Positions 1 to 20,746 of a stretch of DNA of 47,303 bases are shown here, piece by piece. The DNA lies in assembly GCA_944363675.1 (NCBI GenBank), contig CALVUT010000035.1, positions 1 to 47,303 on the forward strand, read 5' to 3'. Position 1 is the stretch's first letter. Every line of letters starts with the position of its first letter. Source of the stretch: an uncultured Bacilli bacterium. Its GTDB lineage: Bacteria > Bacillota_I > Bacilli_A > RF39 > UBA660. Position numbers and translations under genes: made by a program. A model generated the notes under the pieces. It made no database searches and had not been told where the DNA came from. It saw only the letters and a list, made by a program, of their open reading frames with translations.

Positions 1-40
1 CTTCAAAAGTCAATCTTTAATTGATTTTTCCACTAATTCA

Positions 41-334
41 GTGTTAAAACGGCATTATATGTGCATAACTTTTATGATTATTGGAAAGTATTTTAACTAT
101 TTTTTATAAATTGTTTATAACTATTCATATTATATGAATTAATTTATAATGATTTTAAAGGACTTTGTTTTCTTTTTTCCACATATTCACATTATTGTGG
201 ATAATTTTATACACCATTTCAACTTAATCACATTTTTCTGAAAATAAAAATGTTGATAGTGTGGATAACTGCTTTTTTTCTTTTAAATACGGCATTTATT
301 TTGTTGATAACTTGTGAATAGTGTGTTAGGATAA
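41..334. promoter_or_regulatory. oriC left half: DnaA-box cluster and dnaA promoter region
   Basis: Perfect TGTGGATAA (reverse complement of TTATCCACA) at 196-204 and 260-268. TGTGCATAA (TTATNCACA class) at 60-68. One-mismatch boxes at 175-183 (TTTTCCACA) and 302-310 (TGTTGATAA). Lies directly upstream of dnaA. Confidence 0.8.
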
Positions 335-401
335 ATTTTGTTCTTTTAAATAGAACAAAAAAAGTGTAGAATATTGGTTATAAAGCGAGCGGGGTGGTGA
401 A

Positions 402-1787: not shown

Positions 1788-1925
1788 TGTGGATAAAAAA
1801 TTGCTAATGTGAATAACTATGCACATTAAAATTAGGTTGTAAAGCTAGTATTTATCGTCATTTTGAAAGTTATTCACATTATTCACATCATTATTATTAT
1901 GAATATATATTAATAAAATAAGAAA
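1788..1925. promoter_or_regulatory. oriC right half: DnaA boxes plus AT-rich candidate unwinding region (dnaA-dnaN intergenic)
   Basis: Perfect TGTGGATAA at 1788-1796. TGTGAATAA at 1808-1816. Two head-to-tail TTATTCACA boxes at 1870-1878 and 1879-1887, followed by TCATTATTATTAT (1888-1900) and an almost pure A/T tract up to the dnaN RBS. Confidence 0.7.
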
Positions 1926-1941
1926 GAGGGAAGGATGTTTT

Positions 1942-3060
1942 ATGAAATTTGCAATTGAAAAAAGTATTTTATTAGAAAATCTAAATAATGTAGTAAGAGG
2001 TATATCTACTAAAAATGTTATTCCAGTTTTAAATGGAATTAAATTTGAATTAAAAAGTGATGGTTTAACCTTAATGGCTAGTGATAGTGAATTAACTGTA
2101 GAAACTTTTATTGAAAGTAAGCTTATTAAAAATATAGAAAGTACAGGCACTATTATTATTAGTAGTAAGTATATTCTAGAAATTATTCGAAAAATGCCTA
2201 GTGATATTATTAATTTTGAAATGATGGATAGTTTAAAGATTAAGATTTATTCTGATTTTAATCAATACAATTTAAATTGTTTAGATCCAAGTGAGTATCC
2301 TAGCATCAAGTTATTAACACAAAAAGATCCTATTGTTATGAAAGCTAATATCTTAAAAGAACTTATTAATCAAACTAGTTTTGCAATTTCAACTCAAGAG
2401 TTGAGACCAATTTTGACTGGATTAAATTTAAAAATTAATGGGGATTTACTAGAATGTATCGCAACGGATTCTTATCGTTTAGCTAAAAAGAATATTCGGC
2501 TTGATAGTCCTGCTTCTAGTGATGTTAATATAGTTATTCCTGGTAAAAATATTATTGAATTAGAGCATATTTTAGTTGATGATGAGGATGTTTATATTCA
2601 TGTTTTCAATAATAGAGTGTTGTTTCAATATAAAAATATTAAATTTCAGACGAATATTTTAAGTGGAAGTTACCCTAATACATCTAATTTAATTCCTACT
2701 GAATTCGAAATTATTGTTCAAACCAAAAAGAACGACTTTATGGGAGCTGTAGATCGGGCTGCATTGTTAACTCAAGGTAAGGATAAAAATATTATTAAAA
2801 TGAAAATTGAAAATAGAGAGATGATTATTCATTCTTTTGCTTCTGAAATAGGTAAAACTGAAGAAAAAATAAAAATTGATACTAGTGAGTCTGCTAATAT
2901 TGATATTTCTTTTAGTTCTAAGTATATGTTAGAAGCTTTAAAGACTATTAAAGACGAGGATATATTAATTTTATTAAATAATGATGTTAAACCTTTAGTT
3001 ATTAAATCTTTAACAGATGAATCTTTGATTCAGCTTATTTTACCAATAAAAACTTATTAA
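1942..3060 (+). CDS. dnaN: DNA polymerase III beta sliding clamp
   Basis: 372-aa ORF directly after dnaA. Length and position are typical of the beta clamp. RBS AGGGAAGGA. Confidence 0.95.
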   Translation: MKFAIEKSILLENLNNVVRGISTKNVIPVLNGIKFELKSDGLTLMASDSELTVETFIESKLIKNIESTGTIIISSKYILEIIRKMPSDIINFEMMDSLKIKIYSDFNQYNLNCLDPSEYPSIKLLTQKDPIVMKANILKELINQTSFAISTQELRPILTGLNLKINGDLLECIATDSYRLAKKNIRLDSPASSDVNIVIPGKNIIELEHILVDDEDVYIHVFNNRVLFQYKNIKFQTNILSGSYPNTSNLIPTEFEIIVQTKKNDFMGAVDRAALLTQGKDKNIIKMKIENREMIIHSFASEIGKTEEKIKIDTSESANIDISFSSKYMLEALKTIKDEDILILLNNDVKPLVIKSLTDESLIQLILPIKTY

Positions 3061-3168: not shown

Positions 3169-3636
3169 ATGGAAAATTATGAAATTAATAACGAAACAAT
3201 GGCTTTGATTCCTTTGTCGAAAGGAAAAGTTAAAGTATTAGAGTATGATGAGGAGTTCATTTTGGATACAAATGCTACTCAAATTATGGAGGATAGCTGT
3301 CAATATTTTGGAAGTAGTTTGGAAGGAAGACGTAAGGGCACTGAAGTTATGATTGGAGTTAGTTATAAAGCACCTATTATTGTAGAGGAGACTTTTGAGT
3401 TAATTTTTTTTCCTCTTTCTTCTTCTCGTTATCACGATACACCTTGGATTAGTTTAAAATATGTGGATAAGTACTATAAAGAAGGAAAAAATGTTGTTTT
3501 GGAGTTTTTAAATGGCCGAAAAATTTTATTGGATGTTACTTTTGGTATTTTTGACAATCAACTTTTAAGAGCTACTCGGTTAGAAAGCGCTTTAAGAGGT
3601 CGAAAAGTACAAAAAAAACATTTTAACAGGCATTAA
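3169..3636 (+). CDS. ComK-family (competence transcription factor-like) protein
   Basis: 155 aa. By eye it aligns with B. subtilis ComK: SCQYFGSSLEGRRKGT vs SCRFFGSSYAGRKAGT; KAPIIVEETFELIFFPLSSSRYHDTPWIS vs KPPIMVDPSNQIFLFPTLSSTRPQCGWIS; FDNQLLRATRL vs FENQVYRTAWL. RBS AAGGGGG. Confidence 0.7.
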   Translation: MENYEINNETMALIPLSKGKVKVLEYDEEFILDTNATQIMEDSCQYFGSSLEGRRKGTEVMIGVSYKAPIIVEETFELIFFPLSSSRYHDTPWISLKYVDKYYKEGKNVVLEFLNGRKILLDVTFGIFDNQLLRATRLESALRGRKVQKKHFNRH

Positions 3637-6735: not shown

Positions 6736-9186
6736 ATGGATAAGCTTGAACAAAATAATATTGTCAGTGAAGTTAGTAAGTCTTTTGTTGACTACTCTGT
6801 AAGTGTTATTACTTCGCGTGCTTTGCCAGATTTAAGAGATGGCTTGAAACCTGTTCATCGTCGTATTTTATTTTCTATGTATCAATCTGGTTATACTTCT
6901 GATAAACAACATAAAAAATGTGCTCGTATTGTTGGAGATGTAATGGGTAAATTTCATCCACATGGTGATTCTTCTATTTATGAAGCGTTAGTACGCATGG
7001 CACAAGATTTTAGTTACCGTTGTCCTTTGATTGATGGACATGGAAATTTTGGTAATATGGATGGTGATGGCGCGGCTGCAATGCGTTATACTGAGGCTAG
7101 ATTGTCTAAAATTTCTGGTGAATTGTTAAGGGATATTGGAAAAGATACGGTGAATATGATTCCAAACTTTGATGAGTCAGAGAAAGAACCTGAGGTTTTA
7201 CCTAGTCGTTTTCCAAATATTTTGGTTAATGGAACAATGGGTATTGCTGTAGGTATGGCTACCAATATTCCGCCACATAATTTAGGTGAAGTGATTGACG
7301 GGTGCGTTGCCTATATTGATAATCCTGATATAGATACGCTTGGATTGATGCAATATATTAAAGGACCTGATTTTCCAACGGGAGCAACTATTTTAGGAAA
7401 TAGTGGTATAAAAAAGGCTTATGAAACCGGACGGGGAACAATTACTATTCGGAGTAAAGCAAGTATTGAAGAAAAGAATGGACGTTACCAAATTGTATTT
7501 GACGAAGTTCCTTATGGAGTTAATACGTTAGAGTTAAAGAATAAAGTTGCTGAACTTGTTCACAATAAAGTTATTGATGGTATTTCTGACTATCATTCCG
7601 ATTTAAAAGATGGAATAAAAATTACTATTACATTAAAGCGGGATGCAAATCCACAAGTTGTATTAAATAATTTATATAAACATACTTCTTTTCAAACTAC
7701 CTATGGTATAATTTTATTAATGATCGATCAAAAAGTTCCAAAAGTTTTGGGATTAAAAGAGATTATTAGTAAATATATTGATTTTCAAAAAGAGGTTATT
7801 ATTCGGAGAACTCGTTATGATTTGAAGAAGGCTGAAGATCGAGTTCATATTTTGGAAGGATTAAAAATTGCGCTAGATCATATTGATGAGGTCATTAAAA
7901 TTATTCGAGGTAGCAGAACTGATACTGATGCCAAACAGGCTTTGATGAGTCGTTTCGGACTTTCTGAAATTCAAAGTGATGCTATTCTTGAAATGAGATT
8001 GCGTCGTTTAACGGGGTTAGAAAAAGATAAAATCGAAGCTGAATTAGCTGAATTATTGAAAAAAATAGAAGAATATAAAGCAATTTTAGCAAGCGAGCAA
8101 TTGGTATTAGATATTATTAAACAGGAATTGTTAGAAATTAAGGATAAATATGCTGATGAACGTCGTACTAATATTGATATGACTGCTGTTGAGTATATTG
8201 AAGATGAGTCCTTAATTCCAGAGGAAAGTATCATGATTGCACTTACAAACAAAGGATATATTAAACGAACTGCTGTTGATACTTTTAAATCTCAAAATCG
8301 TGGAGGTGTTGGGGTTAAAGGTATGGGAACAAATGAAGAAGATTTTGTAGAACATTTATTGACTTTATCAACGCATGATTATGTTTTATTCTTTACAAAC
8401 AAAGGTAAAGTTTACCGTTTGAAAGGATATGAAGTTCCGGAATTTAGTCGTCAATCTAAAGGTATACCTGTTATCAACTTATTACAAATCGATAAAGATG
8501 AATCCGTTAACTCAATGATCAAGATAACCAGAGATGATCCTGCAAAATACTTATTGTTTGCTACTCGCAAAGGAATCGTCAAGAAAACGGCGATAGAAGA
8601 ATTTGAGAATATTCGTACGAACGGTAAAATATGTATTTCGCTTCGTGATTCAGATGAACTTATTAGTGTACGTAAAACTTCTGGTAATGATATGATTTTA
8701 TTAGGTTCTAGTGCTGGACGAATGGTAAAATTTAATGAAGATGCTGTTCGGGTTATGGGACGCACCGCTAGTGGAGTTCGCGGAATTCATTTAGATAATC
8801 AAGAGTGTATTGGGGCAGAAATTGCTACGGATGATGATAAAATTCTTATTGTAACTAAAAAGGGTTACGGAAAACAAACATTTGTTCGTGAATATAGACA
8901 AACAAGTCGCGGTAGCAAAGGTGTAAAGGCTTTAAATATTACTGATAAAAATGGTAGTATCGCAGCATTTAAACTTGTTGAAGACAATTCGGATGTCGTT
9001 ATTATTACAAATACAGGAATGTTAATTCGTTTACCTTTGCAACAAATATCTACTCTTGGAAGAGCTACTCAAGGAGTTAGACTTATTCATTTAAAAGATG
9101 AACAAACTGTATCTACTATAAGTATTGTTGTTCATGAGGAATCTAATTCAACGGATGAGGGCATTAGTATAAAAAAAGAAGATTAG
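6736..9186 (+). CDS. gyrA: DNA gyrase subunit A
   Basis: 816 aa. Active-site region [14 protein letters not shown]-like [17 protein letters not shown], repeated C-terminal beta-pinwheel blades. Confidence 0.98.
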
Positions 9187-9204
9187 TAAATCTTCTTTTT
9201 TTTT
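9176..9204 (+). terminator. Rho-independent terminator overlapping the gyrA stop
   Basis: AAGAAGATT (9176-9184) / AATCTTCTT (9189-9197) stem, 4-nt loop, then a T-run (9198-9204). Confidence 0.75.
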
Positions 9205-9222
9205 ATGTTTCACGTGAAACAT
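9205..9222. promoter_or_regulatory. parS site 1 (ParB/Spo0J binding consensus)
   Basis: The core 16 nt, TGTTTCACGTGAAACA, is the perfect palindromic parS consensus. Lies directly after the gyrA terminator. Confidence 0.85.
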
Positions 9223-9367
9223 TGTTTCTTTAAAATGCCTTTCTTAATAATAAAGCAAACAATTTAAACATAATTCTAATCTAATTTGTTTTATTGTATT
9301 TTTTAAATATTATATTAAAACGATATCACGAAACTTATAATAGGTTATATGCCTAAATGTTTATAAC

Positions 9368-9385
9368 ATGTTTCACGTGAAACAT
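9368..9385. promoter_or_regulatory. parS site 2
   Basis: Exact ATGTTTCACGTGAAACAT. Preceded by TGTTTATAA (9358-9366), a 2-mismatch DnaA-box-like motif. Confidence 0.85.
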
Positions 9386-9626
9386 ACAAATATAGATTTT
9401 TATGTAAGATTTATTGCTAATTAAAATGATGAAAAAAATTAAAGAGTTATTTTAAAAACAATTTGTATTAAAGTTTTTTTACATGATCTTATGTAAACAT
9501 TTATAACATGTTTGAGTGAAAATAAAGTCAATTATATAATTCAACAAAATTTTTACTTATTAAAAAACAGATGTATTTTATATTAAAACTATAATTTTAT
9601 GGATAAAAGCCCAATTGTGCATAACA

Positions 9627-9644
9627 ATGTTTCACGTGAAACAT
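9627..9644. promoter_or_regulatory. parS site 3
   Basis: Exact copy. TGTGCATAA (9616-9624, TTATNCACA class) ends 2 nt upstream. TATGGATAA at 9598-9606. Confidence 0.85.
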
Positions 9645-9813
9645 TGCAAGATTTTTATTTAAAAAACATTAAAATGTATAATCAGGATTTTGATCGATTA
9701 AAAATAAGCTATTTTTGATAAATATGAGCAATTTTTTTGATTATTATTATAAATTATTAATGTATTTTTTTTTAGAATGCATTTTATGGATAAATGCCTA
9801 TATGTGTATAACT

Positions 9814-9831
9814 ATGTTTCACGTGAAACAT
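9814..9831. promoter_or_regulatory. parS site 4
   Basis: Exact copy. TGTGTATAA (9803-9811) ends 2 nt upstream. TATGGATAA at 9785-9793. Confidence 0.85.
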
Positions 9832-9997
9832 AGTTATTGATCATTTTATTTTTTATTAAAAAAAATTAGAAATATAATCATATTTAAAAAATATATATTT
9901 TTATATTATAATTTATAAAATTTTGATATTTATCAATGTTTACTATAAAAAAAACATTTTGATTCTTTTGGGCTATTATCTTGGAAATGTGTATAAG

Positions 9998-10015
9998 ATG
10001 TTTCACGTGAAACAT
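9998..10015. promoter_or_regulatory. parS site 5
   Basis: Exact copy. TGTGTATAA (9988-9996) ends 1 nt upstream. Confidence 0.85.
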
Positions 10016-10271
10016 ACAAATATAGATTTTTATGTAAGATTTATTGCTAATTAAAATGATGAAAAAAATTAAAGAGTTATTTTAAAAACAATTTGTATTA
10101 AAATTTTTTACTATGATCTTATATAAACCAATATTATGTAAACGTTTATAACATGTTTGAGTGAAATATAAAGTCAATTATATAATTTAACAAAATTTTT
10201 ACTAATTAAAAACAGATGTATTTTATATTAAAACTATAATTTTATGGATAAATGCCTAATTGTGCATAACA

Positions 10272-10289
10272 ATGTTTCACGTGAAACAT
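10272..10289. promoter_or_regulatory. parS site 6
   Basis: Exact copy. TGTGCATAA (10261-10269) ends 2 nt upstream. TATGGATAA at 10243-10251. Confidence 0.85.
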
Positions 10290-10434
10290 TGTCATTGATT
10301 ATTTTACTTTTTCTTAAAAAAAATTAGAAATATAATCATATTTAAAGAATTTTAGATATATTTTTATATTATATTTTGTAAAATTTCGATATTTATCAAT
10401 ATTTACTATAAAAAATCTTGGAAATGTGTATAAG

Positions 10435-10452
10435 ATGTTTCACGTGAAACAT
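10435..10452. promoter_or_regulatory. parS site 7
   Basis: Exact copy. TGTGTATAA (10425-10433) ends 1 nt upstream. Confidence 0.85.
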
Positions 10453-10460
10453 TAGAGAGA

Positions 10461-10489
10461 TTGATTTTTTATTTAATCTTTGATATCAT
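10461..10489 (+). promoter_or_regulatory. Candidate sigma-A promoter of the SRP RNA gene
   Basis: -35 TTGATT (10461-10466), 17-nt spacer, extended -10 TGaTATCAT (10481-10489). The predicted transcription start is near 10496. Confidence 0.55.
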
Positions 10490-10495
10490 GTATTT

Positions 10496-10573
10496 GTGCA
10501 ACAAATATAATGTAATTTGGTCAGGATCGGAAGATAGCAGCCACGTCATTCCCTGTTTGTGTGCACTTTTTTT
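10496..10573 (+). ncRNA. ffs: Small (4.5S-type) signal recognition particle RNA
   Basis: GGTCAGGATCGGAAGATAGCAGCC matches the universally conserved SRP domain IV (E. coli GGUCAGGUCCGGAAGGAAGCAGCC) with a GGAA tetraloop. The 5' GTGCAACAAA pairs with the 3' TTTGTGTGCAC. A T7 run follows (10567-10573). In B. subtilis scr lies in the same tadA-dnaX neighbourhood. Confidence 0.75.
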
Positions 10574-10586
10574 ATGGGAGTTTATT

Positions 10587-11040: not shown

Positions 11041-12651
11041 ATGAATTATAAGGTGTTATATCGTAAATATCGTCCTGATAAATTTTCAAATATTGTAGGG
11101 CAAGATTATTCTATTCAAATGTTGAAAAATGCTATTATTCATCAAAAAATTTCTCACGCTTATTTGTTTACTGGTCCGAGAGGAACCGGTAAAACTTCGA
11201 CTGCAAAGGTTTTTGCAAAGACTATTAATTGTTTGAATCCTATTGATGGTGAGGCATGTGGAAAATGCGCCAATTGCTTATCTTTTGCTACTAGTCCAGA
11301 TATTATTGAAATTGATGCGGCTTCAAATAATGGGGTTGATGATATAAGAGAACTAATTAACAATGTAAAGATTGCTCCATCGACAGGCAAGTATAAGATT
11401 TATATTATTGATGAGGTTCATATGATGACTACAAGTGCTTTTAATGCTTTATTACTTACTTTAGAAGAGCCTCCTAAACATGCTGTTTTTATTATGGCAA
11501 CTACCAATGTTGAAAGTGTACCTATTACCATTTTATCTCGTTGTCAACGATTTAATTTTCAAAAAATTTCACTAGAAAATTTGGAAAAACAAATAAAGTA
11601 TGTTTGTGAAGAAGAAAATATTAAAATTACAGATGATGCTGTAACTGAAATTGCTTCTTTGTCCGAAGGTGGTATGAGAGATGCTCTAAGTTTGTTAGAT
11701 CAACTATCTAGTAATGAAGAAGAAATTACTTTAGATAAGATATTAGAAAATTATGGTTCCATTTCTTCTAAATTTATTAAGGATTTGTTAGAATTTGTTT
11801 CTAATAATGAAGTTTTAAAGGTGGTTGAAGCTATTCAAAATTTAGAAAATACTTCAAGCGATTATAAGGTCTTTATAAAAAAGGTTGTTCAAGAATTGTC
11901 TCATATTGCTGTTTTAATTAAAACAGGTAGTTATAATGGAAATTTTTCTTTTCAACAGGTACGAGATATGATTTTTAAGTTTAATGATATTTTGAATAAG
12001 ATCAATATCAATATGAATCCATTTTCTTTAATTCTTTTGGTTTTTTTGGGAGATATTCAAAATATATCTTCTCAGATTGAGTCAAATGATGTGAATAACT
12101 CATTTTTGGATTCTTCGGATAAATCTTCTGATGAGATTCAAGAAAAAAAAGTTGAAGAAAAAGAGAATGACGCAGATCAAGTCAATGTGTATCTAAAAAA
12201 ATTGCGAGAAATACGTGTTAATAACTGTTTTTATGGTGCAAAAAAGGATTATTTAGTTCAGTACCAGACTGTTTGGAAGAAAGTTTTAGATGATGCTATG
12301 AGTGATCCAAACATTGCTTCTTATGTTTTAGATTTTTCAATTGTTGCAGCTTCATCTGATTATATTTTAATTACTTCTAAGTTAGAAAGTACAGCTAATA
12401 TATTGAATTTAAAATTAGATCAAATGGAAGAGTTGTTAGGACATTATTTCGATAAACCTGTTCATTTTTTTGCATTAAGTGAACAAGATTGGCGAAAAGA
12501 AAAAGAAGAATACATTTTAAAATTAAAGCAAAAATATGAATATTCATTTATAAATGAGTCTATTTTAGATGATATGAAGCCAGAAAAAAATTCTGAACTA
12601 GAAGAAATTACGATAAATGTTTTTAATCGTGATAAAATAGAGATTGTTTAG
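11041..12651 (+). CDS. dnaX: DNA polymerase III subunit tau (DnaX)
   Basis: LYRKYRP N-terminus, Walker A GPRGTGKTS, Zn module CGKCANC, sensor SRCQRF. Low-complexity linker followed by a C-terminal tau-specific region. Confidence 0.95.
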   Translation: MNYKVLYRKYRPDKFSNIVGQDYSIQMLKNAIIHQKISHAYLFTGPRGTGKTSTAKVFAKTINCLNPIDGEACGKCANCLSFATSPDIIEIDAASNNGVDDIRELINNVKIAPSTGKYKIYIIDEVHMMTTSAFNALLLTLEEPPKHAVFIMATTNVESVPITILSRCQRFNFQKISLENLEKQIKYVCEEENIKITDDAVTEIASLSEGGMRDALSLLDQLSSNEEEITLDKILENYGSISSKFIKDLLEFVSNNEVLKVVEAIQNLENTSSDYKVFIKKVVQELSHIAVLIKTGSYNGNFSFQQVRDMIFKFNDILNKININMNPFSLILLVFLGDIQNISSQIESNDVNNSFLDSSDKSSDEIQEKKVEEKENDADQVNVYLKKLREIRVNNCFYGAKKDYLVQYQTVWKKVLDDAMSDPNIASYVLDFSIVAASSDYILITSKLESTANILNLKLDQMEELLGHYFDKPVHFFALSEQDWRKEKEEYILKLKQKYEYSFINESILDDMKPEKNSELEEITINVFNRDKIEIV

Positions 12652-12671: not shown

Positions 12672-12968
12672 ATGAATATGCAGAGTATAATGGCTCAAGC
12701 ACAAAGAATGCAAAGAGATTTACAAAAAAAGAAAGAAGAAATTAATGCTCAATTATTTCCCGGGAAATATGAATTTGTTGAAGTGACTTTGAATGGTAAA
12801 AAAGAATTAGTTAAAATTTCTATTCAAAAAGATTCTTTAGATAAAGAAGATATTGAAATGTTAGAGGATTTTATAGTTTTGGCTCAAAAAGATGCATTAG
12901 CTAAAGTAGATAAGGAATTTCAAGCAAAGATGGGGCAGTATGCTGGTATGCTTGATGGATTAATGTAA
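12672..12968 (+). CDS. ybaB: Nucleoid-associated protein YbaB/EbfC
   Basis: 98 aa. MQ-rich N-terminus (AQAQRMQRDLQKKKEE). Conserved dnaX-ybaB-recR synteny. Confidence 0.9.
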   Translation: MNMQSIMAQAQRMQRDLQKKKEEINAQLFPGKYEFVEVTLNGKKELVKISIQKDSLDKEDIEMLEDFIVLAQKDALAKVDKEFQAKMGQYAGMLDGLM

Positions 12969-12969
12969 A

Positions 12970-13578
12970 ATGAATTCGGTTTATCCTGAAAGTTTGGATC
13001 AAATCATTGAATTTTATAAAAAATTACCTGGTGTTGGTGAAAAGAGCGCAGAGCGTATGGCTTTAGCAACGTTAAATTTGGCTACTGATGATATAGAACT
13101 TTTTAGTAATGTGTTGATTAAAGCTAAAAAGAATTTACATCCGTGTTCTGTTTGTGGAAATTTGACAGATAATGATGTTTGCTCTATTTGTGCCAATGTG
13201 AATCGGGATCATAATTTGATTTGCGTTATTGAGGATTATAAAAGCGCTTTTGCTTTTGAAAAAGCTGGTAATTTTAAAGGAGTGTATCACGTTTTAAATG
13301 GCTTGATTTCTCCTATTGATGATATTGGTGCTGAGGATATTAATTTGTCGTCATTAGTTAAGCGAGTTGATGCTTTAGAATCTCCAGAGTTAATTTTGGC
13401 TTTGAAAAGTTCCATTGAAGGTGAGACTACAACATTATATATTAAAAAAGTTTTTGAACAGAAAAATGTGAAAATATCTAGATTATCTTATGGTTTACCA
13501 ATCGGAGCAGAAATTGATTATCTTGATATGACTACTTTAGATAAAGCATTAAGTGATCGAAAAGTAATTTCAGAATAA
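12970..13578 (+). CDS. recR: Recombination protein RecR
   Basis: LPGVGEKSAERMA helix-hairpin-helix, C4 zinc finger CSVCGNLTDNDVCSIC, Toprim domain. Confidence 0.95.
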   Translation: MNSVYPESLDQIIEFYKKLPGVGEKSAERMALATLNLATDDIELFSNVLIKAKKNLHPCSVCGNLTDNDVCSICANVNRDHNLICVIEDYKSAFAFEKAGNFKGVYHVLNGLISPIDDIGAEDINLSSLVKRVDALESPELILALKSSIEGETTTLYIKKVFEQKNVKISRLSYGLPIGAEIDYLDMTTLDKALSDRKVISE

Positions 13579-15449: not shown

Positions 15450-16143
15450 TTGGCTTTTTGATTATCCCAATTTAAAAGTGTTTCAGTATGAAGAAGGTTT
15501 TAAATTTTCATTAGATTCTATTTTATTATTTGAGTTTGCACAGATAAAAAAAGATGACTATCAAATTATTGATTTTTGTACGGGTAATGCCGTTATACCT
15601 ATTTTGATTCAAAATAAATATAATAAATCTGTTATTGGTGTAGAATACCAAGAAAAAATATATCAATTAGCAAAAGAGTCCGTGCAATATAATCATATGG
15701 AAAAAGAGATAACACTTATTCAAGATAATGTAAAAGATCTAAAAAATTATTTCCCGGGAAATAATTTTGATGTTATTTTATGCAATCCACCCTATTTTAA
15801 ATATGTGGAATCTAGTAATATTAATAAAAATCTTATTAAAAGTATTGCGCGTCATGAGATCTGTATAACATTAAAAGATATTTTTGAAGTAGCAAGTTTT
15901 TTCTTAAAAGATAAAGGAAGATTTTATTTAGTGCATATTCCTGACCGTATTGATGAAATCTTTGTTTATGCTAATCATTGTGGTTTAGCTGTAAAAGAGC
16001 TACAATTCGTTTATTCTAAGGCCGATGAAAAGCCTGTAATGGTTTTAGTTACTTGCGTTAAGGGAGGACGTTTTGGAACTCGAGTTTATCCACCAGTAAA
16101 TATTGGAGGGTTACAAAGTTACCAGGGAATTTTTAGAAAGTAA
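15430..16143 (+). CDS. SAM-dependent N6-adenine methyltransferase (YabB/TrmN6-like)
   Basis: DFCTGNAV SAM-binding motif I and catalytic CNPPYF motif. Confidence 0.75.
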   Translation: MMNKTLNWLFDYPNLKVFQYEEGFKFSLDSILLFEFAQIKKDDYQIIDFCTGNAVIPILIQNKYNKSVIGVEYQEKIYQLAKESVQYNHMEKEITLIQDNVKDLKNYFPGNNFDVILCNPPYFKYVESSNINKNLIKSIARHEICITLKDIFEVASFFLKDKGRFYLVHIPDRIDEIFVYANHCGLAVKELQFVYSKADEKPVMVLVTCVKGGRFGTRVYPPVNIGGLQSYQGIFRK

Positions 16144-20496: not shown

Positions 20497-20702
20497 TTAG
20501 GGTATTCAATGGTGAAGGAAAGAGTATATAGTAATTCTTTTTTTAGAGAGCTTATGATTGGTGAAAATAAGTAAAGGGTTATTATGGAAGATGGTTCTGG
20601 AGTTGAAACGTATTTCTGCGTTAGAGAGAGAGTGCATGAGACAATCATGAAATAAGGTGGTACCACGGGTTTTAACTCGTCCTTATATTCATGATTTTTT
20701 TA
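20497..20702 (+). promoter_or_regulatory. T-box leader (Met specifier candidate) controlling metG
   Basis: AGAGAG bulge and GGTGAAA distal-loop motifs. AUG at 20584-20586 lies on the 3' side of stem I. Conserved T-box GGTGGTACCACG at 20656-20667. Terminator arms 20645-20658 / 20681-20695 plus a T-run. Confidence 0.85.
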
Positions 20703-20746
20703 TTTAAATTATTTCCCGGGAAATAATTTGGAGAGGATGGATATAT

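Follow-up and report, generated by a model that had tools for sequence, protein, structure and literature searches.

In the 47,303-nucleotide stretch analysed here (the window; contig CALVUT010000035.1, from an uncultured Bacilli bacterium), the 1.3-kb AT-rich spacer that follows gyrA carries an array of seven parS sites, the binding sites of ParB, six of which are immediately preceded by a 9-mer resembling the binding site of the replication initiator, DnaA. This pairing of box and parS is real, non-random and polar, and it persists from species to species in a spacer that is otherwise randomised. The array may be an origin-proximal centromere whose weak DnaA boxes provide crosstalk between initiation and segregation in cis; on the sequence comparisons described below, we give this reading an even chance of being right.

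The parS sites are seven perfect copies of TGTTTCACGTGAAACA, conforming to the 16-bp palindromic parS consensus TGTTNCACGTGAAACA, where 0.31 copies would be expected in the window. They start at 9206, 9369, 9628, 9815, 9999, 10273 and 10436, all inside the spacer between gyrA and the gene for the small signal recognition particle (SRP) RNA, and they are 7.4-8.7 kb from dnaA, the origin-proximal location characteristic of chromosomal parS. Five of the motifs that precede them read TGTG(C/T)ATAA, which on the minus strand matches the relaxed DnaA-box 9-mer TTATNCACA exactly; the sixth is TGTTTATAA (TTATAAACA on the minus strand). The relaxed 9-mer has 17 matches in the window (3.5 expected), 11 of those outside the array being in or beside dnaA. 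All six boxes are on one strand and adjoin the ParB-binding region, with 2-3 nt between box and 16-bp core; judged by sequence, a DnaA box and a ParB site thus occur together in six of the seven units. A preliminary description of this DNA had placed five boxes in one orientation at 9616, 9803, 9988, 10261 and 10425, coordinates that prove exact on the minus strand, and had noted the weaker box of site 2, which we find at 9358-9366; its gap of 1-2 nt corresponds to the 2-3 nt given here, having been counted to the 18-bp palindrome ATGTTTCACGTGAAACAT and not to the 16-bp core. Its statement that each parS is fused to a box holds for six of the seven, parS1 being box-less. It had also described a second box-like motif, TATGGATAA, which is present at 9598, 9785 and 10243, in each case with 9 nt between it and the main box downstream, but is not conserved: another assembly of the same organism (L170) has TATGGGTAA in its place and the nearest species (L001) lacks it, for which reason it is discounted. 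The elements of the array are as follows, with the strand where one applies:

9206..9221, parS1, perfect 16-mer, no box
9358..9366, minus strand, weak DnaA-box-like TTATAAACA (TGTTTATAA on the plus strand), 2 nt before parS2
9369..9384, parS2, perfect 16-mer
9598..9606, minus strand, second box-like TTATCCATA, not conserved in strains or relatives
9616..9624, minus strand, DnaA-box-like TTATGCACA, 3 nt before parS3
9628..9643, parS3, perfect 16-mer
9785..9793, minus strand, second box-like TTATCCATA, not conserved
9803..9811, minus strand, DnaA-box-like TTATACACA, 3 nt before parS4
9815..9830, parS4, perfect 16-mer, at the centre of a 30-bp palindrome (9808-9837)
9988..9996, minus strand, DnaA-box-like TTATACACA, 2 nt before parS5
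9999..10014, parS5, perfect 16-mer
10243..10251, minus strand, second box-like TTATCCATA, not conserved
10261..10269, minus strand, DnaA-box-like TTATGCACA, 3 nt before parS6
10273..10288, parS6, perfect 16-mer
10425..10433, minus strand, DnaA-box-like TTATACACA, 2 nt before parS7
10436..10451, parS7, perfect 16-mer, just upstream of a promoter-like site of the SRP RNA gene

The preliminary description had proposed enrichment over shuffled sequence as a measure of the pairing, and by this measure the pairing is far above chance: shuffling of the spacer yields an expected 0.0006 box-parS composites per trial, against 5 observed. The array consists of nested segmental duplications and its upstream flanks fall into about three types (those of 9628, 10273 and 9815; of 9999 and 10436; and of 9369), so that the five units are not independent and represent two or three events in the window. 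Two independent composites among four sites have a probability of 2e-7. The window alone cannot separate function from hitch-hiking.

The comparison was made over 49 loci, chosen as species-level representatives with the GyrA C-terminal domain as query, at identities from 93% down to 58%; the closest relatives in the databases are genomes assembled from gut metagenomes of human, rabbit, mouse and goat, which carry the labels uncultured Bacilli, Tenericutes or Erysipelotrichaceae. The order dnaA-gyrA-spacer-dnaX is kept in all 49 loci, and parS arrays follow gyrA in nearly all of them, with several parS in almost every spacer. Among the 352 parS flanks of the window and these relatives, TGT[GT]NATAA ends 2-6 nt before parS in 60 and is near-absent at 9-31 nt; at every one of the 62 boxed sites the box lies towards gyrA, with its strand unchanged, and 62 of the 72 array boxes are within 8 nt of parS. 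Sequence logos anchored on parS are blurred by the variable gap and were uninformative; the flanks, dereplicated to <75% identity, were instead scored by their minimum Hamming distance to the canonical box TGTGGATAA, with 20-nt windows from the same arrays as controls. This was done separately for group A (the window, L001-L007, L010 and L014), group B (L015-L023) and group C (about 60% identity):

Group A, upstream: 22/43 with at most one mismatch, 34/43 with at most two
Group A, downstream: 1/44 with at most one mismatch, 2/44 with at most two
Group A, control windows: 17/817 with at most one mismatch, 41/817 with at most two
Group B, upstream: 5/19 with at most one mismatch, 5/19 with at most two
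Group B, downstream: 7/19 with at most one mismatch, 13/19 with at most two
Group B, control windows: 8/299 with at most one mismatch, 24/299 with at most two
Group C, upstream: 5/55 with at most one mismatch, 11/55 with at most two
Group C, control windows: 8/2046 with at most one mismatch, 113/2046 with at most two

The upstream flanks of group A differ from their controls with Fisher probabilities of 1e-21 (at most one mismatch) and 9e-32 (at most two). Their downstream flanks are the key internal control, because they do not differ in distance from parS or in exposure to duplication and conversion, yet have not kept the motif. In group B the box is found on either side of parS with its strand constant, and group C shows a weak excess only. 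Two types of unit are common to the window, L001 and L007/L010, namely ...GCCTAnnTGTGNATAA-CAA-parS and ...ATCTTnnAATGTKNATAA-GA-parS; within each, the box variants differ by species and the sequence further upstream is unrelated. The composite unit is thus conserved in relatives while the surrounding spacer has diverged beyond recognition, but not in the fixed register that the preliminary description had attributed to it, since the closest group has gaps of anything between 2 and 6 nt and the box changes sides in group B.

The pairing characterises this low-GC clade of uncultured gut Bacilli and does not extend to parS in general. When metagenome contigs were scanned for the composite pattern, at least 120 stretches were returned, from many habitats and GC contents; with the ascertained site in each contig removed, 1 of the 107 other parS sites among the matches listed is composite in contigs of at least 31% GC, against 16 of 100 in low-GC contigs, and many of the low-GC contigs among these matches carry GyrA or DnaX homologues of this clade. 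The scan also brought up a recurrent array of four parS, spaced at about 346, 272 and 127 nt, in gut contigs of 40-46% GC that apparently belong to one common taxon (L053, L061, L066, L082, L085, L088, L098, L116, L138, L157, L158 and L166), where a box stands before the first parS and sometimes a second one after the fourth.

The array motif belongs with the DnaA boxes of the clade's own origins, as the preliminary description had supposed, in that both have the same invariant and variable positions and are part of the same enriched family of 9-mers. This family occurs at 15-22 per kb in the flanks of dnaA, against 0.6-0.85 per kb in coding DNA. In the array set as in the oriC set, mismatches to the consensus are found at box positions 4 and 5 (and 1), corresponding to positions 6, 5 and 9 of TTATCCACA in the canonical orientation, whereas those in the coding background lie elsewhere; G2, T3, A6, T7, A8 and A9 are invariant in both sets, and each variant seen in the arrays is also seen at oriC. 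The DnaA protein itself is canonical in domain IV, keeping the base-contacting segment FGGRDH(S/T)TV(I/L)HAC of the E. coli and B. subtilis structures. We conclude that the array motifs are in all probability weak, isolated boxes of the DnaA type, which do not make up a DnaA-box cluster.

As we picture it, the spacer between gyrA and the SRP RNA gene, 1.3 kb long and about 7.4 kb from oriC, would be an origin-proximal centromere array, whose repeating unit places a sub-consensus DnaA box (TTATN[C/A]ACA, minus strand) 2-3 bp from a perfect parS, on its oriC-proximal side. DnaA would bind these boxes, and would be expected to do so mainly in its ATP form and at high concentration, because they are non-consensus and isolated. 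At the spacing of 2-6 bp seen in the clade, the DNase footprints of a DnaA box and of ParB on parS would abut or overlap; with such a gap, occupancy by DnaA and the loading or release of ParB clamps would affect each other, either through direct contact or through steric exclusion. The array would act in cis as a point of crosstalk between initiation potential and the assembly of the segregation complex, and would not be a high-capacity sink for DnaA. The influence could run in either direction, with DnaA blocking or directing the loading and sliding of ParB clamps, or with ParB masking the box. We prefer such a crosstalk element to a reservoir, given that the boxes hug parS and avoid clustering, despite plentiful free spacer. 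A bolder form, which strikes us as possible but doubtful, is that in this clade, whose gut Bacilli have reduced genomes, each ParB-loading site has its own low-affinity sensor of DnaA-ATP 2-6 bp away, the initiator directly gating the loading or escape of ParB clamps at all units of the array, or ParB occupancy gating the access of DnaA; this would be a modular cis switch, possibly replacing the route from Soj/ParA to DnaA.

Several observations weigh against crosstalk through DnaA. The perfect consensus is found in 5/76 array boxes (2/49 dereplicated) against 105/209 at oriC (18/114 dereplicated), and about half of the array boxes across relatives read TTATNAACA, which is outside the classical TTATNCACA. 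The base right after ATAA is C in 67% of array boxes and in 23% at oriC, a preference that could reflect common descent or a different reader. The boxes are isolated, at roughly one per 200 bp, and where the B. subtilis threshold for stable DnaA binding is A > 0.3 (Ishikawa), A is 0.03-0.08 over the array and up to 0.66 at the oriC of the same window. Neither the ParB that binds these parS sites nor any ParA was found in the sequence covered, the walk upstream of the origin included. One lineage of relatives (L008-L013) has replaced the composites with box-less tandem parS, which shows the box to be dispensable for parS function, and descent by tandem duplication can explain the constant strand orientation. 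Between the closely related L002 and L003, 0/45 box positions and 56/1256 spacer positions carry substitutions, a difference that is not significant, rate tests on so close a pair being underpowered; pairs more distant than this cannot be aligned, even their parS columns being misaligned.

The departures from the oriC consensus would be accounted for if the motif were read by a protein other than DnaA, such as another origin-region factor or an accessory surface of a long ParB/Noc-family protein; its likeness to the DnaA box would in that case be partial. Beyond the avoidance of the perfect consensus and the favoured C after ATAA, the arrays have T at box position 4 in 53% of their boxes, against 24% at oriC, and a ParB-family protein with about 200 extra residues is encoded near the origin. 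We nevertheless regard another reader as unlikely, since the invariant positions are those of the oriC boxes and all the array variants recur there, while the variable spacing and the placement on either side of parS in group B do not suit one rigid extended site; the extra segment of the ParB-family protein is, moreover, an acidic low-complexity insert before the C-terminal domain, in which no DNA-binding domain is recognised.

This protein is the product of the one ParB-family gene in the origin region, about 10 kb upstream of dnaA (L170 1-91; L175 1048-2280, minus strand). It is 410-423 residues long, its gene is found beside gidB and is followed by a gene for a penicillin-binding protein and not by soj/spo0J, and in the upstream walk no parA adjoined it; the homologue in a relative scores nearer to Noc than to Spo0J. 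Perfect palindromes resembling Noc-binding sites (NBS), TTTCCCGGGAAA, occur in the window at 12756-12767, 15750-15761 and 20712-20723, all outside the array. In relatives (for example L007 at about 11210-11255 and 13000-13047; L031, L034 and L035), similar motifs stand directly beside parS in the same spacer, and triple combinations of NBS, box and parS are also seen (tatttcccgggaaataatt-TGTGAATAA-caa-parS); in the more distant group C the box seems to be replaced by an NBS at 7-9 nt from parS.

The presence of Noc-site-like motifs in the same spacer would also fit a reservoir, that is, a stand-alone DnaA-box cluster (DBC) of the B. subtilis DBC or E. coli datA type, which would titrate or inactivate DnaA after the origin has fired and would have parS and, in relatives, Noc sites as mere neighbours on an intergenic 'landing pad'. 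Like such clusters, the array is origin-proximal and intergenic and has multiple co-oriented boxes, and the lineage without array boxes has an oriC richer in consensus boxes. In B. subtilis, the ywcI-vpr DBC is bound by both DnaA and Spo0J and also holds a parS, and the DBCs restrain initiation in synergy with Spo0J (Ishikawa 2007, PMC2533591; Okumura 2012, PMC3245932). Box density, however, is far under the B. subtilis threshold, with A at most 0.08, for which a cluster of the DBC or datA type was rejected and the titration role suggested in the preliminary description loses ground; the boxes are mostly weak variants, and they keep to the immediate vicinity of parS without clustering, although 150-270 bp of free spacer lies between units. 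A reservoir is on these counts distinctly unlikely.

It is also improbable, in our estimation, that the box-like motif is a functionless passenger, part of an ancestral repeat that was perhaps derived from the leftmost oriC box and was carried along with parS by tandem duplication or gene conversion. The way in which the array was built by nested duplications speaks for such an origin, as does the constant orientation, which descent would predict. So does the resemblance between a unit flank (type I) and the oriC half upstream of dnaA, which the preliminary description had pointed out and which is a real match to window positions 50-69 (CGGCATTATATGTGCATAAC). The arrays also turn over within the organism: in four other assemblies whose DnaA is identical to that of the window (L170-L173), and which are hence from the same organism, there are 7 or 8 parS, the copy number varying through parS-parS recombination. 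Three of these four have an extra boxed unit after parS1, with the box TGTTTATAA in one and TGTGCATAA in two; its box and linker look, from their sequence, to have been converted from another unit, and since the other assemblies hold this unit, parS1 of the window looks like a recombinant of parS1 and parS2 of the longer array. Against a passenger stands the fate of the two flanks: in group A, dereplicated as above, the motif is kept in 34/43 upstream flanks but in 2/44 of the equally close and equally conversion-exposed downstream ones. In addition, the differences between units are confined to positions that also vary at oriC, the box persists though the linker shifts from 2 to 6 nt, and the motif survives between groups with 76-93% identity in the GyrA C-terminal domain, as well as in some deeper branches.

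The lineage that lost its boxes and kept parS is likewise a point for the passenger. In a neighbour-joining tree of DnaA, DnaN and GyrA, L008-L013 are sister to group A, with group B outside both, a placement from which the boxes have most likely been lost in L008-L013; boxed arrays are thus spread over two sister-level groups and some deeper branches (L032, L033 and L043), with one nested loss. In the box-less lineage (L008, L009, L011, L012 and L013) the parS sites form tight tandem arrays with a period of 40-41 bp, at least 14 copies in L008 (11213-11750), and several contigs end inside them (L009, L011, L012 and L013), which indicates that such arrays break assemblies. The oriC of this lineage has 17-19 boxes, mostly consensus, against 7-10 in boxed lineages; in L008 and L012, compared over the dnaA-dnaN spacer and the 500 nt ahead of dnaA, a second copy of the dnaA-dnaN box module lies upstream of dnaA. 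These extra oriC boxes may compensate for the lost array boxes, as a single event only.

That the motif belongs to promoters or operators in the array (of the SRP RNA gene, tadA and dnaX or of transcripts internal to the units), with ParB as a silencer, is very improbable: although TGTTGATAA contains the near-consensus -35 element TTGATA, minus-strand TGCACA or TATACA with TAAAAT give weak promoter-like matches and parS7 abuts the promoter-like site of the SRP RNA gene, a consensus scan finds no enrichment (17 promoter-like sites, against 17.7 in shuffles), a single box variant is -35-like with no conserved -10 at 16-18 nt, and no Rfam RNA lies in the array. An extended ParB recognition site was rejected on account of the gap of 2-6 nt, the either-side box in group B, the box-less parS arrays of the sister lineage and the lack of association outside the clade.

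The preliminary description knew of no such juxtaposition of the two binding sites, which is too strong, as there are precedents in the parS of Caulobacter, in cisII/cisMP of Deinococcus and in ywcI-vpr of B. subtilis. In Caulobacter crescentus, a DnaA site within the parS region is needed for the DnaA-driven movement of the centromere (Mera, Kalogeraki and Shapiro 2014, as reviewed in PMC6399470 and PMC4468827); as here, a DnaA box is found in or beside the ParB-binding centromere of a chromosome, within a few kb of the origin; there it links the initiator to segregation. This likeness is drawn from the descriptions in the reviews and not from the exact geometry of the sites, and it is limited by the Caulobacter system being that of an alphaproteobacterium, ParA-dependent and polar, with a single parS region, whereas the arrays described here belong to low-GC Bacilli and consist of 6-11 candidate modules, in each of which box and parS are 2-6 bp apart, with the polarity constant. 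In Deinococcus radiodurans, the DnaA boxes of cisII/cisMP overlap parS-like iterons, and in vitro DnaA and the cognate ParB both bind to this DNA (Maurya and Misra 2020, PMC7671480). It resembles the array in its repeated units and in its non-canonical DnaA boxes, which start just upstream of the ParB-type sites, but it belongs to secondary replicons, consists of 18-bp non-palindromic iterons and has ori function, while here a canonical bipartite oriC lies about 7 kb away, the parS sites are canonical and the box abuts parS without overlap.

The best mechanistic precedent for interference between neighbouring sites is, by analogy, rctA/parS2-B of Vibrio cholerae chromosome II, where the binding or spreading of ParB2 alters the occupancy of RctB (Yamaichi 2011; Venkova-Canova 2013; via PMC4468827 and PMC6399470). 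There too a ParB site lies within an initiator-binding locus by the origin; the initiator, however, is RctB and not DnaA, and the locus is a single one on a plasmid-derived replicon. The B. subtilis DBCs, ywcI-vpr among them, share with the array the setting in a Firmicute and the origin-proximal, intergenic position outside oriC, but they are dense clusters of DnaA sites, where here a single weak box accompanies each parS, and no tight register between box and parS has been reported for B. subtilis. Plasmid centromeres with a site for an accessory protein, such as P1 parS with its IHF site, also combine a ParB site with that of a second protein at fixed short range; the second protein is in this case an architectural bender between the arms of ParB boxes and not a replication initiator. 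A text search of the literature returned no array of this modular kind, in which each canonical parS has one weak box at 2-6 bp, the polarity is constant and the arrangement is conserved in a Firmicute clade. We rate the architecture as extending the known kind of initiator site at a centromere, and its modular form, with one weak box per parS, as a new variant.

The coordination of replication and segregation is understood in few model species, mostly through protein-protein links such as that between Soj and DnaA. If the crosstalk reading is correct, a repeated module of initiator site and ParB-loading site at the level of DNA would be a simple cis architecture for their coupling, directly testable on a single 30-bp unit, and the precedents from Caulobacter, Vibrio and Deinococcus would be extended to a Firmicute lineage and to a common group of uncultured gut bacteria. 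The arrays evolve fast, by copy-number change, conversion and replacement with tandem arrays, and yet keep specific neighbours; their turnover matters for the prediction of origins and centromeres in metagenome-assembled genomes, where arrays often break contigs.

The window opens on the chromosomal replication origin, with dnaA (402-1787), dnaN (1942-3060), a small open reading frame (ORF) of the ComK family, recF, gyrB and gyrA (6736-9186) in this order; gyrA is followed by the 1.3-kb spacer of the array, the small SRP RNA gene, tadA and dnaX. Perfect and near-perfect DnaA boxes are found on both flanks of dnaA, and the bipartite oriC is canonical. The remaining features of the origin and the spacer are:

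1..401, oriC half upstream of dnaA, with same-family boxes TGTGCATAA at 60, TGTTTATAA at 112, TGTGGATAA at 196 and 260, and TGTTGATAA at 302
1788..1941, oriC half between dnaA and dnaN, with two minus-oriented boxes, then two tandem plus-oriented ones, TTA repeats and an AT-rich stretch
9175..9204, plus strand, hairpin and T-run of the gyrA terminator, directly before parS1 and overlapping the stop codon of gyrA (9184-9186), read from the sequence and the ORF coordinates
9509..9521, degenerate parS TGTTTGAGTGAAA (one base deleted), with a decayed box CATTTATAA before it
10154..10166, degenerate parS, a duplicate of the copy at 9509
10485..10583, plus strand, small SRP RNA gene (Rfam RF00169, 54.5 bits), the right bound of the array

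Both degenerate parS have in front of them a decayed box ([AC][AG]TTTATAAC) and direct TTATGTAAAC / TTATATAAAC repeats; a dif-like reading of the latter was rejected, since the repeats are direct and the left arm is a poor match to the dif of B. subtilis. The 30-bp palindrome around parS4 is near-perfect (ATAACTA-parS-TAGTTAT) and was scored as terminator-like in a scan. Within the coding sequence of dnaA, two perfect DnaA boxes abut at 680-697 (TGTGGATAATGTGGATAA); TGTGGATAA inside dnaA recurs in relatives, 22 times over 19 loci. The ORF between dnaN and recF (3169-3636) encodes 155 residues and has no NCBIfam match, while a precomputed Pfam hit to ComK (PF06338) is present in the loci of the same organism. 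Rfam matched no RNA inside the array; its only matches were the SRP RNA and a distant T-box leader at 20503-20687 (RF00230, 113.7 bits).

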